DNA of 64,000 nt, from assembly GCA_016839555.1 (NCBI GenBank), contig JAEOUA010000004.1:1-64000 (forward strand). The letters run 5' to 3'. Positions 1,331 through 33,645 of this stretch are shown here, piece after piece. Under the pieces are notes generated by a model, which did not search any database, was not told the origin of the DNA, and saw only the letters and a program-made list of their open reading frames with translations. Positions within the stretch are counted from its first letter, which is position 1; the number at the start of each line of letters is the position of its first letter. This DNA is from Promethearchaeota archaeon. GTDB lineage: Archaea > Asgardarchaeota > Lokiarchaeia > Sigyniarchaeales > SOKP01. The translations under genes were made by a program, and so were the position numbers.

Positions 1331-1601
1331 TTTTTTGAGGAATTAATAATGTAGTTCTGTAATAGACCCTTATAAAAAAATTATTTCATTGATTATTTAA
1401 GATTTATTATTTTAGAGGAGAAATTTCTCTTTTTCAAACCTTCAAAATCAAAAGCTAAAATATTTTATTAAAAGTAAATAATTTATTAAATATAAATTAA
1501 AATAAAAGAATTCAATTTTTCATATATGATTTTTTGAATTAGAGAAAAAATAATGAAATTCTTACCAAAACTTAAAAAAAACTTCTTATGGAGATGAAAT
1601 T

Positions 1602-2537
1602 ATGAAAAAGATTTATCAAATAATACTTACCGTTCTTCTAATTATAATCGGTGCTCTAGCGATATATTATTGGGATTACATATTAGAAACGCTAAATGTT
1701 GATCCTGTGCTGGTATATTCTATTATGATTAACATATTTGTATATATAGGACGAACGATACTCATCCGAATTTTAAATTTTGCGTTAGGAACTAGAAAAA
1801 TTCGATTCATATTAGTATTTATCATCAATATCATTTGGATTGTGTTTATATTTGAATTGATTTTTATAATCTCTCCGCAATTGGGCGTTGCTGTCATATC
1901 TTTCTTAGTAGTCGCAATCTCTTTAACTATGGAAGATAGGATAAATACAGTTACATCTGGGATTATGCTTTTATCAGCAAGTTCATTTGATATCGGGGAT
2001 TTAATAGAAACCAATGAAATTCAAGGGATTGTTACCGAAATTAACTTAAGTTATACTAAAATACGCGATTTCTTAGGGATATTCACTTATATTCCTAATA
2101 CTGCTGTCTATAATGCGAGTATAAAAAAGTTTACCCAAAAACTCTCCCGTCTCCCAACACCAGAAGAAGAAGAGAAAATTGAAGCAAAAAGTTATAAGAA
2201 GTTCCTTAAAAAATTAGAAGATATTATTGCAAAAGAGGGGAAATTTACAAGATATATAAAAGTTGTCGAAGTCCCCTACATTGCAGATTTGGAACACGTT
2301 GGGGATCTATTAGAAGAAGTTTTCGATAAATATGAAAAAAGATTGGGAATTAGACCTTATTACTATGCTAATACTACAGTACGGGACCATTTAAGCATTA
2401 CCTTGCAAATTTTGTCAAAAAATCCACAATTGGTTTTAAGAAATACCTATCCATTTATCAAGGATGTTTTATATGCATTATTGTCTGATGAATTAATTGC
2501 TGGATCAAAAAACCAAAGAGAGGAGGGTGGTAAATAG
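1602..2537 (+). CDS. MscS-family small-conductance mechanosensitive channel protein
   Basis: N-terminal TM helices followed by SGIML..FDIGDLIE..GIVTEINLSYTKIR..YIPN, the MscS beta-domain pattern. Confidence 0.85.
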   Translation: MKKIYQIILTVLLIIIGALAIYYWDYILETLNVDPVLVYSIMINIFVYIGRTILIRILNFALGTRKIRFILVFIINIIWIVFIFELIFIISPQLGVAVISFLVVAISLTMEDRINTVTSGIMLLSASSFDIGDLIETNEIQGIVTEINLSYTKIRDFLGIFTYIPNTAVYNASIKKFTQKLSRLPTPEEEEKIEAKSYKKFLKKLEDIIAKEGKFTRYIKVVEVPYIADLEHVGDLLEEVFDKYEKRLGIRPYYYANTTVRDHLSITLQILSKNPQLVLRNTYPFIKDVLYALLSDELIAGSKNQREEGGK

Positions 2538-28141: not shown

Positions 28142-30070
28142 TTGTTGAATATGGGACATACTCTAACAGAAAAAATCATAACTAAGCATTTACTTGAAGG
28201 AAAATTAATCAAAGGAGAAAATATAGGAATTAAAATAGATCAAACGCTTACTCAAGATGCAACGGGCACGCTGGCATATCTTCAATTCGAAAGTATGGGC
28301 GTATCTAAGGCAAAGACCGAGTTATCAGTGAGCTACGTAGATCATAATACATTACAAACAGATTATAGAAATGCGGATGATCATCGATATCTTAAAAGTA
28401 TAGCTGCGAAATATGGACTATATTTTTCAAAACCTGGAAATGGGATTTGTCATCAACTTCATTTGGAACGATTTTCAATACCCGGAAAAACTCTATTAGG
28501 AAGTGATAGTCATACCCCAACTTGTGGAGGAATTGGAATGCTTGCTATTGGTGCGGGTGGTTTGGATGTTGCTGCAGCAATGGCAGGCGAACTTTTTTAT
28601 TTTAAAATGCCTCAAATCATTAATATGCATTTAATCGGTGAACTTTCCAAATTTATTTCAGCTAAAGATATTATATTAGAAATATTGAAAAGATTAGATG
28701 TTAAAGGCGCTGTAAATAGGATTTTAGAATATACAGGTCCCGGGATTAAGAGCTTATCAGTTCCAGAGCGAGCAACAATAACAAATATGGGAACTGAAAC
28801 AGGTGCTACAACCTCAATATTTCCTTCAGATGAAAATACAAAAAAGTTCCTATATGCTCAACAAAGAGTAAATGATTGGAAGGAATTAAAATCTGATGAA
28901 GATGCTACTTATGATGGAAAAATAGAGATGGAATTGAACGAGATTGAGCCTATGATTGCCTTACCTCATAGCCCAGGTAATGTAAAGCCTGTAAAGGAAG
29001 TTGAGGGGGTTCCTATTGATCAAATTTGCATAGGAAGTTGTACAAATTCCAGTTTAAGAGACTTGAAAATAGTCGCAAATATCTTTAAAAATCGAAAAAT
29101 AAAAGATGATGTAAGTGTCACAATTTCTCCAGGTTCAAGACAAGTTGTGAACCATTTAATTAAATCTGGGGAGATGTCTTACTTGATAAAAGCAGGAGCA
29201 AGGATTTTAGAAAATGCATGCGGACCTTGTATAGGTATGGGGCAAGCCCCCTCCACCGATTCAGTTTCTCTACGAACCTTTAATAGAAATTTTATCGGAA
29301 GATCCGGTACAAAAAGTGCGAGTGTTTATCTTGTAAGTCCCGAAACCGCAGCAGTTTCCGCTTTAATGGGAAAAATTACGGATCCTCGAACTTTCGATCA
29401 TTCAATAGAAATTACTATGCCAGAAAAATTTATTATTAATGATAATATGATTGTTCCCCCTTCAAGCACTCCTGAAAAAGTTAAAATAATTCGTGGTCCA
29501 AATATAAAACCCTTACCTTCTTTTCCTCCATTAAAAGATAAATTAAAGGGGGAAATCCTGCTTAAAGTGGGCGATAATATTACTACTGATCATATTATGC
29601 CTGCTGGGGCTAAAATTTTACCATTGAGGAGTAATATTCCAGCGATTAGTGAGTATGTATTTAATATTATTGATTCGAGTTTTTCAAATCGAGCCTTAAA
29701 TAGAAACGGGGGATTTATTGTTGGGGGAGATAATTACGGTCAAGGATCAAGTCGAGAGCATGCCGCTATAGCTCCTAAATATTTAGGAATTAAAGCTATT
29801 ATCGCAAAATCCTTTGCTCGCATCCATTTAGATAATTTAATTAATTTCGGAATTGTCCCACTTACATTTAACAATCTAAAAGATTATCAATCCCTTGATC
29901 AAGGTGATATTATAGAAATTGATTTAACTTCGTTAGAATTGGATAAAGTTGTAATTCATAACCTTACTAAAAATAATAAAATAACAACAAAACATAACTT
30001 AGATAAAAGATCCCTTCAAATTCTTAAAGTAGGGGGAAAATTACCCTATATTAGACAAAAACAAAATTAA
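28142..30070 (+). CDS. Single-chain aconitase-family hydratase (aconitate hydratase)
   Basis: DHN, GICHQ, GSDSHT, IGSCTN, CGPCIG (three Fe-S Cys), TTDHI, NYGQGSSREHA; ATG at 28151 is an alternative start. Confidence 0.93.
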   Translation: MLNMGHTLTEKIITKHLLEGKLIKGENIGIKIDQTLTQDATGTLAYLQFESMGVSKAKTELSVSYVDHNTLQTDYRNADDHRYLKSIAAKYGLYFSKPGNGICHQLHLERFSIPGKTLLGSDSHTPTCGGIGMLAIGAGGLDVAAAMAGELFYFKMPQIINMHLIGELSKFISAKDIILEILKRLDVKGAVNRILEYTGPGIKSLSVPERATITNMGTETGATTSIFPSDENTKKFLYAQQRVNDWKELKSDEDATYDGKIEMELNEIEPMIALPHSPGNVKPVKEVEGVPIDQICIGSCTNSSLRDLKIVANIFKNRKIKDDVSVTISPGSRQVVNHLIKSGEMSYLIKAGARILENACGPCIGMGQAPSTDSVSLRTFNRNFIGRSGTKSASVYLVSPETAAVSALMGKITDPRTFDHSIEITMPEKFIINDNMIVPPSSTPEKVKIIRGPNIKPLPSFPPLKDKLKGEILLKVGDNITTDHIMPAGAKILPLRSNIPAISEYVFNIIDSSFSNRALNRNGGFIVGGDNYGQGSSREHAAIAPKYLGIKAIIAKSFARIHLDNLINFGIVPLTFNNLKDYQSLDQGDIIEIDLTSLELDKVVIHNLTKNNKITTKHNLDKRSLQILKVGGKLPYIRQKQN

Positions 30071-30188
30071 AAATAAACTATTTAATTTTGAAGATTTTAA
30101 TAGTTTAAAAATAGTGAAGTGTAAAATATTTAAAAAAAGATTATTTTTTTAATTTTTTATTTTTATTGGTCACACTCACGCAGAGTGA

Positions 30189-30224
30189 ATCCCCAATCTT
30201 CTACCATTTATAAGATTGAGTCAT
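30189..30224 (-). promoter_or_regulatory. Eukaryote-type SECIS element in the 3' UTR
   Basis: Minus strand reads AUGA-CUCAAUCUU-AUAAAUGGUAG-AAGAUUGGG-GAU: UGA/GAU non-Watson-Crick core, 9-bp helix (8 WC plus 1 GU), apical AAA; begins 4 nt after the stop of a TGA-containing ORF. Confidence 0.8.
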
Positions 30225-30228
30225 TTTT

Positions 30229-30597
30229 TTACCCATACACATCCGATTCTTTTTTTATAAATAACATGCCAACTGTTTTTCCTTTGACTTCACCGAGTGC
30301 TGCATCGATAAGCATTGTAGGCTTTTCTTCGAATTCAGATACTAATGGGTTTTCAATATAGACTTCGACATCATAATCTTCATTAAATTCATCCCATTTA
30401 ACGAAGCCTTTTTTATCTTTGAGAACCTTATGTTTTTGGACAAGTTCTACCACATTTCCGCAAAATGCCATTGTTCATGTTTCAGATGAATAGAAAAAAA
30501 TTGCAAGTATTAGTTCAGAGGAGTTATTTTGTTTTTTTTTAGTTTCTTTTTGTTCTTTAATATAATTCAGTGCTTTATTTGATATTGTTATCTTAAA
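30229..30597 (-). CDS. HesB/IscA-fold selenoprotein candidate (in-frame TGA = Sec at 30477-30475); start codon uncertain
   Basis: Readthrough gives KITISNKALNYIKEQ...LILAIFFYSSET-U-TMAFCGNVVELV...DVEVYIENPLVSEF..TMLID..LFIK; SD GGTGA at 30608-30604; SECIS downstream. Confidence 0.75.
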
Positions 30598-30723
30598 AAA
30601 TTATCACCACTTTCTATATTTTATATGCAACAATCTTTTAAAAATTTAAAATATTTATATAATTGTTTTAAAAACTTTTTTTGTATAATATGAAAAAAAA
30701 TTTGTAAAAATATCGACTAAAAT

Positions 30724-33645
30724 ATGACACAAGAAGAATTACAAGTACATAATTTAGAAGTAGAGAAAGTGGCTGACGAATTAAAGACATCCATAGATAT
30801 AGGCCTTACTGAGGAGGAAGCTGAAAGGCGTCTTGAGCAATATGGATTAAATGAAATACAAAAAACTGGGGGAGTGTCTCCTATACAAATATTCATTAAT
30901 CAATTTAAAGATTTCTTAGTTTATTTATTGTTTTTTGCCATAGGAATTTCTATCGTTGTTGGATTTTATGAATTATCGATTGGCGGTGATCCATCTGAAT
31001 TTTTAGATGCTATCGTGATATTTATTATCCTCGTTGCAAATGCCATTTTAGGTTTTTATCAGGAATACAAAGCGGAAAAGGCTATTGAGAGTCTGAGAGA
31101 GATGGCTCCACATTTTGCCGTTGTAATACGTGATGGAAAAACCAAACAAATTGATGTCAAAGGGGTTGTACCAGGAGATATCTTGAAGCTTGATGAGGGA
31201 GATAAAATTCCCGCAGACGCTCGGCTATTTGAAAATTATTCATTATATGTGGATGAGGCAATCCTCACCGGTGAATCTCAACCAGTTGAAAAAGATTTAA
31301 ACCTATATGACGTAAAGACCATGTTAGCAGATAGGAAAAATATGGTATTTAGTAATACAGTCATTACTCGTGGAAATGCAAAAGCTATTGCGGTAAGAAC
31401 GGCTATGAAAACAGAGGTTGGTAAAATAGCTGAAAAAATACAAGAGGAAGAACCGGAAAAAACTCCCTTTCAAAAAGAGGTTGATCGTTTTGGAAAACAA
31501 ATAGGAATTATAACTTTGATTGTATGCGCCATGGTATTCGTAATAGAGTTGGTAATAATTATTGCAACAGAAGGATTCGGATTTGAAAAAGCTGAAATCG
31601 AAGAAATAATAGAGGCTTTAACAATTGCGATAAGTTTAGCTGTATCGGCTGTACCAGAAGGATTGGTAGTTGTAATTACGGTTGTAATGAGTATCGGAAT
31701 GCGAAAAATGGCGGAACGAGACGCCTTAGTTAAAACTTTAACAGCTGTGGAAACCTTGGGGAGAGTGAACATCATTTGTTCTGATAAAACTGGAACTCTC
31801 ACCAAAAACGAAATGACGGTTAAAAAAGTATATCTTGGAGGAGAGGAATATGATGTGGATGGTGTTGGTTATATTCTTGAAGGGAAAATACTGGATAATT
31901 CTGGGAATCCAATTCAACTTGATGATAACAAAAATTTAAAAAGATACTTGGAAGTGTGTAAATTTTGTAATAACTCAACAGTTTCACCTAAAGATGATAA
32001 CCCAGTAAAGACTAATGTTATTGGAGATCCTACAGAAATCTCTTTAAAAGTTCTCGCAATGAAAATGAATCTCGATACGGAATCTAAAAAACTTGATGAG
32101 ATACCATTTAGTTCTGACAGAAAAATGATGTCGGTTGTTGTAAAAATGAATGGAGAACTTTATTCTCTCATTAAAGGAGCTCCTGATGTGATCATGAAAA
32201 AGGCGGGAAAAGCATTATATAATGGAGAAATAAAACCAATTGATGAAGTCAGAGATATATATCTTTCAAAAAATAACGAATTTGCTGAGAATGCATTAAG
32301 AGTCCTAGGGATTGCCTACAAGCCTCTAAATGAAGGATTTAATAAGGATGAAATTGAACAAGATTTTACCTATCTTGGATTAGCAGGAATTATAGATCCC
32401 GCGAGGGATGAAGTAAAAGACTCAATAGAAGAAGCAAGAATGGCTGGTATTAGAACTATTATGATAACAGGCGATCATAAAATTACCGCTATTGCCATAG
32501 CAAAACAAATCGGATTAACTGACATAGACGACGCGATTACTGGTGCTGAAATGGAAGAGATGTCTGATGAGACATTAAATGAGCGAGTTGAAGAAGTAGA
32601 TGTGTTTGCAAGAGTAACATCTGGGCACAAACTTAGAATTCTTAAAGCCTTGAAATCAAAAGAATATGTTGTTTCCATGACAGGTGATGGAGTAAATGAT
32701 GCTCCAGCAGTGAAAGGGGCAAATGTAGGCGTGGCAATGGGGATAAAAGGAACGGAAGTAACTCGCGAAGCTTCCGATATGATCCTATTGGACGATGATT
32801 ATTCAACAATCGTAGATGCTATTGAAGAGGGTCGCGGAATTTTTGAAACTACAAAGGGTTTTTTCAGGTATATGCTTGCTGCAAATTTTGATGAAATATT
32901 TATGATCTTAACGGCATATATTTTGATGAAAGTCGCAGTGAATATCTATTTAGCACCACCTATACAAGCTATTCAGATATTATGGTTAAACATCGCCACA
33001 GATGGTATTCCAGCAATGGTTCTTGGATTAACTCCAACAGATCCGGATGTTATGAAACTTAAACCGCGAAAAGGATTTAATATGATACATGATATTAGAA
33101 ATGCGATAATTTTCGCAGCAGTTTTTGCTGCAATCACCGATGTTTTATTATATATAATTTGTTGGGGAGTCCTTATTCCCGCATGGTCTACTCCAGGAGG
33201 GCTTGTATTTGATCCGCGCTTACAAAATTATCACATAATAGAAACTTCAATTCTAGGAGTTAAAATAGATCTTGGAACTGATGCCTATGAATATGCTATA
33301 GCTGTCGCTCAGAGCATCGTCTTTACAAATGTGGTATTTTTTGAATTATTTTTTGTCTTTTCATGCACTTCCGAGTGGAAACCTTTATGGGAATTTCCCA
33401 ACAAACATCTATTCTGGGCAACAGGGATTTCATTTGTATTACATCTATTGATTCTCTTCACACCGCTAAACATTGCCTTCCATGCCGTACCGATGGACAG
33501 GTGGTACCATTGGGTAGCCATATTTCTAGGATCCATTGGAATTGTTCCCGCAGAGGAATTCAGAAAATATCTCATTCGTCGCAGACAGCATAAATCAAAA
33601 AGATATCAACGACGATTAAGCAGTTATCATAGAAATAACAACTAA
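30724..33645 (+). CDS. P-type cation-transporting ATPase, type IIA (Ca2+-like)
   Basis: LTGES, PEGL, CSDKTGTLT, KGAPD, MITGD, TGDGVNDAPA, LWLNIATDG. Confidence 0.96.
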   Translation: MTQEELQVHNLEVEKVADELKTSIDIGLTEEEAERRLEQYGLNEIQKTGGVSPIQIFINQFKDFLVYLLFFAIGISIVVGFYELSIGGDPSEFLDAIVIFIILVANAILGFYQEYKAEKAIESLREMAPHFAVVIRDGKTKQIDVKGVVPGDILKLDEGDKIPADARLFENYSLYVDEAILTGESQPVEKDLNLYDVKTMLADRKNMVFSNTVITRGNAKAIAVRTAMKTEVGKIAEKIQEEEPEKTPFQKEVDRFGKQIGIITLIVCAMVFVIELVIIIATEGFGFEKAEIEEIIEALTIAISLAVSAVPEGLVVVITVVMSIGMRKMAERDALVKTLTAVETLGRVNIICSDKTGTLTKNEMTVKKVYLGGEEYDVDGVGYILEGKILDNSGNPIQLDDNKNLKRYLEVCKFCNNSTVSPKDDNPVKTNVIGDPTEISLKVLAMKMNLDTESKKLDEIPFSSDRKMMSVVVKMNGELYSLIKGAPDVIMKKAGKALYNGEIKPIDEVRDIYLSKNNEFAENALRVLGIAYKPLNEGFNKDEIEQDFTYLGLAGIIDPARDEVKDSIEEARMAGIRTIMITGDHKITAIAIAKQIGLTDIDDAITGAEMEEMSDETLNERVEEVDVFARVTSGHKLRILKALKSKEYVVSMTGDGVNDAPAVKGANVGVAMGIKGTEVTREASDMILLDDDYSTIVDAIEEGRGIFETTKGFFRYMLAANFDEIFMILTAYILMKVAVNIYLAPPIQAIQILWLNIATDGIPAMVLGLTPTDPDVMKLKPRKGFNMIHDIRNAIIFAAVFAAITDVLLYIICWGVLIPAWSTPGGLVFDPRLQNYHIIETSILGVKIDLGTDAYEYAIAVAQSIVFTNVVFFELFFVFSCTSEWKPLWEFPNKHLFWATGISFVLHLLILFTPLNIAFHAVPMDRWYHWVAIFLGSIGIVPAEEFRKYLIRRRQHKSKRYQRRLSSYHRNNN

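Follow-up and report, generated by a model that had tools for sequence, protein, structure and literature searches.

A mis-annotated selenoprotein gene of Lokiarchaeia with a predicted IscA/HesB fold

The locus and the conservation of its reading frame

The subject of this work is a real, mis-annotated selenoprotein gene on the minus strand of a Lokiarchaeial contig. The window, i.e. the whole stretch of DNA that was analysed, comprises 64,000 nucleotides (nt), positions 1-64,000 of contig JAEOUA010000004.1 (GCA_016839555.1) from Promethearchaeota archaeon (Lokiarchaeia). Gene callers find an open reading frame (ORF) of 80 amino acids at 30229-30471. Upstream of its ATG the frame continues for 43 codons (41 sense codons, one TGA and a Thr codon) up to a TAA, and between 30600 and 30232 the TGA is the single interruption (Table 1). 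Strong evidence argues for the gene model according to which 30600-30229 very probably encodes one protein of 123 residues with the fold of IscA, SufA and HesB, the UGA being decoded as selenocysteine (Sec, U) by means of a selenocysteine insertion sequence (SECIS) of the lokiSECIS type and the Sec system of the genome. The Sec motif of this protein is U-T-M-A-F-C (U-x4-C).

A first-pass annotation, made from the letters of the DNA alone, had given the 80-residue ORF, the TGA, the 43 codons, the TAA and a Shine-Dalgarno sequence (SD) GGTGA; all of these positions were correct on recheck, and the U-x4-C motif and the missing C-terminal CxC which it described are both seen in the read-through protein. 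It had also expected that gene callers would truncate the protein, and public protein databases indeed carry 80-residue 'hypothetical proteins' (one from a Promethearchaeota metagenome-assembled genome) as well as N-terminal stubs of about 40 residues. Some full-length database versions show a W at the Sec column, which corresponds to TGA read by genetic code 4. Contigs from two further metagenome runs, one of them from another study, are letter-identical over the TGA and the SECIS; the start-codon position (30598-30600) has no useful cover in them.

Table 1 Features of the selenoprotein locus and candidate genes of the Sec machinery in the same genome
Feature	Position	Strand	Remarks
Selenoprotein coding sequence, through TGA	30229-30600	-	123 codons and TAA stop (30231-30229)
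Codon aligned with the TTG/ATG start of relatives	30598-30600	-	TTT in the window
Shine-Dalgarno sequence GGTGA	30604-30608	-	Same spacing kept in orthologs; abuts TAA 30603-30601
Sec codon UGA, residue 42	30475-30477	-	In the loop from strand 2 to strand 3; TGA in all 22 Sec genes aligned, Cys in 8 homologs
Cys47 codon TGC, partner in U-x4-C	30460-30462	-	Invariant in Sec forms; single-Cys homologs lack Cys47
lokiSECIS (type I, eukaryote-like SECIS)	30190-30224	-	Begins 3 nt past the stop
Short GC-rich hairpin CACTC-TGCGT-GAGTG	30173-30187	-	Immediately 3' of the SECIS
P2A-type (PMR1/SERCA-like) cation ATPase	30724-33645	+	Divergent; adjacent in 17 of the 20 orthologous loci
Aconitate hydratase ([4Fe-4S] enzyme family)	28142-30070	+	Convergent; neighbour in 9 of 20 loci
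SelD with in-frame TGA	C1:367638-368441		184.8 bits, above cut-off
SepSecS	C5:400755-401912		388 bits, above cut-off
tRNA-Sec candidate	330 nt from SepSecS		45.3 bits, cut-off 47
EFSec-like gene	C5:407787		237 bits, cut-off 242; about 6 kb from SepSecS and the tRNA-Sec candidate
PSTK-like gene	C4:74888-75646		E 7e-47, just below cut-off

A six-frame search reading through stops, with the single protein as query, detected the 123-residue frame in 19 of 36 genomes belonging to the same archaeal family. Each copy possesses exactly one TGA and 40-70 % identity to the query, and many of the same-family genomes contain a second, more distant paralog close by, likewise with one TGA. The same query gave no match in 24 genomes of neighbouring families. 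A profile search was extended to 400 genomes of the phylum, among them 134 of the window's own family; it returned matches in 52 of these 134 (about 40 %), almost all with one TGA, and weak TGA-bearing matches in five other families. The family is restricted to Lokiarchaeia and consists of Sec forms, which fall into two subtypes and often stand in tandem, and of Cys forms.

In an alignment of 22 Sec-form genes (A1) the TGA column falls within the block of highest conservation, F-Y-S-S-x-[ST]-U-[TS]-x-x-F-C-[GS]-[ND]-V-x-E-L-V. The methionine which gene callers take as the start, two codons past the TGA, is replaced elsewhere among the orthologs by I, L, T, S or A, and therefore the C-terminal piece is not an independent gene. 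Furthermore, a comparison with the closest relative (70 % identity) yields ratios of non-synonymous to synonymous substitution rates (dN/dS) of 0.25 in the 40 codons ahead of the TGA and 0.115 behind it, dS being above 1. The upstream segment, earlier proposed to be coding, is hence conserved as such, both by this ratio and by the full-length orthologs with one TGA.

Natural full-length homologs with a cysteine at the Sec column were returned by an exhaustive profile search. Eight of them were aligned jointly with 19 Sec forms, and the Sec/Cys column is the sole invariant column of this alignment; the Cys forms show Leu or Thr where the Sec forms have Cys47, and in another subgroup the loop is expanded into a Cys-rich, metal-site-like insert. 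Such homologs had been looked for as a check of the first-pass reading, and the codon is TGT in those examined. One Cys homolog possesses an ATG start and a 3' untranslated region (3'UTR) without a SECIS-like element. In one relative a Cys paralog (TGT, no SECIS) is located between two Sec paralogs, both of which have a SECIS, and it serves as an internal control for this element. The new Sec/Cys pair can be used for studying why Sec is retained.

Tandem clusters of paralogs occur at L016 (G028:C10:77805-81179; genes at 523-885, 1009-1347 and 1501-1878, minus strand) and also at L022 and L025. Three types are met in such clusters, i.e. Sec genes of a main type (S-U-T-M-x-F-C-G-N) and of a second type (S-U-S-G-x-F-C-[ST]-D), and Cys genes (x-C-[AS]-G-S-Y-L-D). 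A SECIS is present behind the Sec types only.

Selenocysteine insertion, decoding machinery and translation start

The element 3' of the gene consists of AUGA (30224-30221), a 9-bp stem (30220-30212 with 30200-30192), an A-rich loop of 11 nt, AUAAAUGGUAG (30211-30201), with a terminal AG, and GA (30191-30190). The lokiSECIS has been described as AUGA, a 9-bp stem, an 11-nt loop that opens with adenines and ends in A and an ultraconserved G, and GA (Mariotti et al.; PMC4989117), and has been modelled as similar to the type I eukaryotic SECIS (Huang et al.; PMC11227280). The window element agrees with this description in every part, i.e. AUGA, stem (9 bp, with 7-15 allowed), loop (11 nt, with 8-20 allowed), terminal AG, GA and closeness to the stop. 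A common conserved element is found in the 3'UTRs of all 22 Sec genes, and from the ortholog 3'UTRs RNAalifold recovers the SECIS stem with compensatory changes in seven of the nine pairs.

A strict lokiSECIS pattern matches nine times in the 3.74-Mb genome, compared with a mean of 0.3 in 20 shuffles. Eight of the nine matches lie directly behind ORFs with an in-frame TGA (three VhuD-like, two VhuU-like, one Prx-like, one unknown ORF of 157 residues and the window gene); SelD of this genome uses a type II SECIS variant, as published. This explicit pattern scan took the place of a covariance model (R1) from the 22 family 3'UTRs, which proved too family-specific and recovered no site in the genome but its own. 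It missed the other SECIS elements, and the primary sequence therefore differs between the SECIS of different genes. In an Rfam scan neither a SECIS nor any other family reached the gathering score within the window, and around the locus there were chance-level matches only; no Rfam family matches lokiSECIS. Together with the invariant TGA column and the eight Cys homologs, the canonical lokiSECIS behind the stop supports the earlier proposal that the TGA is a Sec codon.

A short GC-rich hairpin follows each lokiSECIS of the genome 2-5 nt past the GA, for example ACCTT-GCA-AAGGT. It was seen behind the SECIS of SelD (C1), of the VhuD-like (C7, C10, C12) and VhuU-like (C6, C9) genes and of the Prx-like gene (C10). 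The hairpin is kept in the 3'UTRs of the orthologs of the window gene, and some copies have a T-run behind them. It might belong to the SECIS or act as a terminator.

The machinery for Sec synthesis and insertion, another check suggested at the outset, is represented in the genome (Table 1). SelD and SepSecS score above their cut-offs, and the candidates for tRNA-Sec, EFSec and PSTK score just under cut-offs that were trained on other lineages; ARAGORN did not call the tRNA-Sec candidate. SepSecS, the tRNA-Sec candidate and the EFSec-like gene form a 'Sec island' (C5:400755-408710).

A true stop at the TGA, which would leave two small genes or an 80-residue gene behind a conserved leader and place the upstream frame outside the protein, finds some backing in the separate database entries for the C-terminal and sometimes the N-terminal piece and in the ATG two codons after the TGA of the window, but is exceedingly improbable, as this ATG is variable (I, L, T, S, A) among orthologs, homologs have Cys at the TGA column within a continuous frame, a canonical SECIS stands 3' of the gene and none after the Cys forms, and the predicted fold requires both halves, with strands 1-2 and helix 1 supplied by the upstream part.

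The start codon is the unusual part of the gene. Relatives have GGTGA or GGTGG, 3 nt, TTG or ATG and then Phe-Lys codons. In the window the aligned codon is TTT, and ATG, GTG and TTG are all absent from the upstream 42 codons; the closest relative has TAG at the aligned position. These observations speak against the gene model at its 5' end: since a canonical start before the TGA is lacking, either initiation is unusual or the assembly has an error at the start base. The purifying selection acting on the N-terminal part speaks in favour of its translation. Altogether, the codon at the start position is non-canonical in 7 of 20 orthologs (TTT, TAG, ATA, CTG, ATT, TCG, AAT; besides the window these are L014, L017, L018, L021, L022 and L028).

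An inactive or decaying copy of an otherwise real family, with its start mutated from TTG to TTT and no longer translated, would account for the absence of a canonical start in a place where relatives mostly have exactly TTG or ATG. We consider it very unlikely. Frame, TGA, SECIS and SD are all intact, and the N-terminal dN/dS of 0.25 (dS about 1.1) was obtained against a relative which also lacks a canonical start, which indicates that both lineages have long kept this part coding. In addition, the seven non-canonical orthologs come from different genera, and this suggests a tolerated unusual initiation rather than repeated gene death. The frequent non-canonical starts behind a strong SD are an oddity of the way in which these Archaea initiate translation, and one that can be tested. 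A programmed +1 frameshift, by which a GTG within the SD would be joined to the main frame at T-TAA, was rejected as unsupported; the out-of-frame arrangement GTG...TAA is a consequence of the conserved SD spacing and the Phe-Lys codons and is present in orthologs with TTG or ATG, too.

More than 400 Asgard genomes have been screened by homology to known selenoproteins (Huang et al. 2024; PMC11227280), and the Asgard families reported are seven, i.e. SelD, FrhA/VhuU, HdrA, FrhD/VhuD, Prx-like, AhpF-N and DsbA-like only (PMC11227280). According to a review from 2026 there are 11 archaeal selenoprotein families, with HesB-like proteins in methanogens only (PMC13188914). The comparison with these lists, which the first-pass annotation had recommended as a measure of novelty, shows that the present family is missing from them and that no HesB-like protein is listed for Asgard archaea. 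Our literature search found no paper describing this Lokiarchaeial family, and neither NCBIfam (June 2026) nor Pfam has a model that captures it. The published Asgard selenoproteomes were built by homology, and the organisms already use eukaryote-like SECIS elements. For annotators the family is a concrete one to add; about 40 % of the sampled genomes of one Lokiarchaeial family carry copies of it, and these are always mis-called as a hypothetical protein of 80 residues.

Two other genes of this genome with in-frame TGA codons may be recorded here. The Prx-like gene (C10, ORF ending just before the SECIS at 423589, minus strand) possesses two such codons within its active-site motif W-U-H-A-U. 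The 157-residue ORF (C7:6067-6537, plus strand; L054:468-938) has two adjacent in-frame TGA codons in the motif G-C-U-U-D, matches no Pfam family and is followed by a canonical lokiSECIS which begins 4 nt past the stop (AUGA at C7:6542). A ThiS/MoaD/Urm1-like ORF with a C-terminal Gly-Gly stands directly upstream of it. Homologs were detected in 28 of the 41 related genomes searched, and nearly every homolog has two or three TGA codons. The lists published for Asgard selenoproteins do not contain this family, which may be a second unreported one.

Predicted fold and relation to the HesB/IscA superfamily

An AlphaFold2 model based on the 22-sequence alignment (predicted local distance difference test 86.2, predicted template modelling score 0.78) has the element order strand, helix, strand, loop and strand; the loop (residues 38-47, of lower confidence) carries U42 and C47. 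With this predicted model as query the 11 top-ranking PDB matches of Foldseek all belong to the IscA/SufA/HesB type. VIA-align gave Z values of 8.7, 8.6, 8.0 and 7.9 over whole chains of Escherichia coli IscA, E. coli SufA and cluster-bound IscA (root-mean-square deviation 3.4-3.6 Å, 96-99 residues aligned, about 12 % identity). Other PF01521 structures, including DsrR (2k4z, Z 6.8), reached Z 4.8-6.9, and the next unrelated fold had Z 3.1.

Sequence comparisons point in the same direction at lower strength. The best member of the family scores 23.2 bits against PF01521 (cut-off 26.3), and two relatives reach E values of 8.4e-5 and 0.0013, all of them sub-threshold and in register. The best homolog obtains 22.1 bits against TIGR01911 (E 1.8e-4, cut-off 66.35) and the best family score against NF041239 is 16.7 bits (E 0.0056, cut-off 40), again in register; individual relatives also give sub-threshold, in-register matches to IscA models. 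In a language-model space the nearest clusters to a natural Cys homolog are PF01521. When the family was compared by hhalign with a reference profile of IscA, SufA and ErpA from E. coli K-12, the Sec column fell on Cys35 of IscA (E 0.041), in the same register as against IscA alone. Against a Lokiarchaeial CC/Se-family protein the Sec falls on the CC motif (E 0.0065, 78 columns). From these weak but concordant alignments and the topology of the model, Sec42 probably stands at the place of IscA Cys35.

Several results weigh against the assignment to this superfamily. The window protein itself obtains 12.7 bits against PF01521 (E 0.16, cut-off 26.3). TIGR01911 gave no match at the window locus, and a search of the genome with NF041239 did not return the window protein. 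Profiles A1 and A3, run against the chain sequences of the PDB, found no IscA. A Z near 8 lies little above the reach of unrelated small alpha/beta folds. No single sequence signal is significant alone, and the link to HesB would consist of the predicted fold and of sub-threshold signals, all of which agree with that fold. The C-terminal CxC cluster ligands, as seen in the alignment of IscA, SufA and ErpA, are absent in all 27 sequences of the joint Sec/Cys alignment.

On balance we regard the family as a new divergent Lokiarchaeial branch of the HesB/IscA superfamily, outside TIGR01911 and NF041239. The first-pass annotation had spoken of a HesB/IscA protein with the TGA in the loop of the first IscA cysteine. 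The structure search, recommended there and headed by IscA/SufA/HesB proteins in both Foldseek and VIA-align, sustains the fold and the superfamily (Z up to 8.7), and the position of the TGA agrees with the hhalign column match to Cys35; the protein stands outside the known HesB-like selenoprotein family, all cut-offs having been failed.

Possible function and comparison with known systems

The UGA at 30477-30475 is very probably read as Sec, directed by the lokiSECIS and with the participation of SelD, PSTK, SepSecS, EFSec and tRNA-Sec. The evidence for function is weak, and the following scheme is put forward in that sense. The selenolate of residue 42, in the flexible stretch that links strands 2 and 3, would be the working ligand or nucleophile of a HesB-like carrier, which could hold iron, an iron-sulfur (Fe-S) cluster or a sulfur/selenium species (e.g. 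a persulfide) across a dimer. Cys47 might be a second ligand, or a resolving residue which parks or protects the Sec as a selenenylsulfide. The core chemistry would need one nucleophile or ligand, because the Cys forms keep only residue 42 and have Leu or Thr for Cys47. A six-frame search of 13 genomes (G000 and 12 relatives) revealed no PF01521 protein above the Pfam cut-off, and only weak HesB-like or CC-Se-like small ORFs (L038, L039) were found in them; the role of such a carrier therefore appears vacant. A carrier with a selenolate as its working group is a tentative proposal.

The genomic context gives it no strong support. The selenoprotein gene is monocistronic and shares a 123-bp AT-rich intergenic region with the divergent ATPase (Table 1). 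This conserved neighbour is a Ca/Mn-type ATPase and not an Fe-S assembly gene, which counts against the carrier proposal. The ATPase and the aconitase as functional partners were treated as weak candidates, as their synteny is observed within one archaeal family and not at the locus of the Cys homolog.

Alternatively, the protein could be a selenol/thiol oxidoreductase which, like most prokaryotic selenoproteins, serves in redox reactions, with U-x4-C as its couple, instead of an Fe or Fe-S carrier; the IscA-like fold would then be no more than a scaffold, or its similarity convergent. In favour of this, every Sec form has Cys47, the set of three cysteine ligands known from A-type carriers is not complete, the CxC being absent, the HesB sequence signals are sub-threshold, and a redox role is assumed for most selenoproteins that are still uncharacterised (PMC13188914). 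However, the natural Cys forms retain only the cysteine of the Sec column, which points to a core chemistry with a single nucleophile or ligand, and another subgroup has the metal-site-like insert; the predicted match to IscA and SufA spans the whole protein, and the carrier role is left open in the 13 genomes. A redox function seems to us little less likely than the carrier, each of the two being less likely than not.

If the carrier reading holds, selenium may be linked to Fe-S or chalcogen trafficking. A wider view would be that Lokiarchaeia use a selenium-based substitute for the A-type Fe-S or iron carrier and that, with the 157-residue two-Sec family added, the Asgard selenoproteome extends well beyond the seven published families, with lineage-specific members, some of which have non-canonical starts; this is speculative and, taken as a whole, unlikely.

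With regard to known systems, the core of the window SECIS is without difference from the lokiSECIS of Asgard selenoprotein genes. Among proteins, the HesB-like selenoprotein TIGR01911 has its Sec at the place of the conserved cysteine of HesB. The window family resembles this protein of Methanococcales and some bacteria in being small (about 90-120 residues), related to IscA/HesB and equipped with a single Sec. It differs from it by the motif U-T-x-x-F-C-G-N in place of UxGP (PMC13188914), by a eukaryote-like lokiSECIS instead of the euryarchaeal SECIS with GAA_A, and by its occurrence in Lokiarchaeia only. What the HesB-like selenoprotein does is unknown even in M. maripaludis (PMC11097638).

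The CC/Se motif family (NF041239, PF28096), first predicted in Moorella, is likewise small and similar to the HesB fold, with a reactive Cys or Sec in the same loop. Its motif is CC or CxxU, whereas the window family has U-x4-C; Lokiarchaeial relatives encode a CC-motif member of it (L039, 33.7 bits). With the A-type carriers IscA, SufA and ErpA (PF01521) the window family shares the predicted fold over the whole length, the N-terminal strand-helix signature and the reactive residue of the loop. Unlike them it lacks the invariant C-terminal C-G-C-G ligands, has Sec for Cys and stays below the Pfam threshold. DsrR of sulfur oxidisers combines the IscA fold with a loss of the canonical cluster ligands, and a role other than Fe-S assembly is ascribed to it. 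It has no cysteine at all in the loop, in contrast to the window family, which keeps precisely this position as its sole invariant residue.

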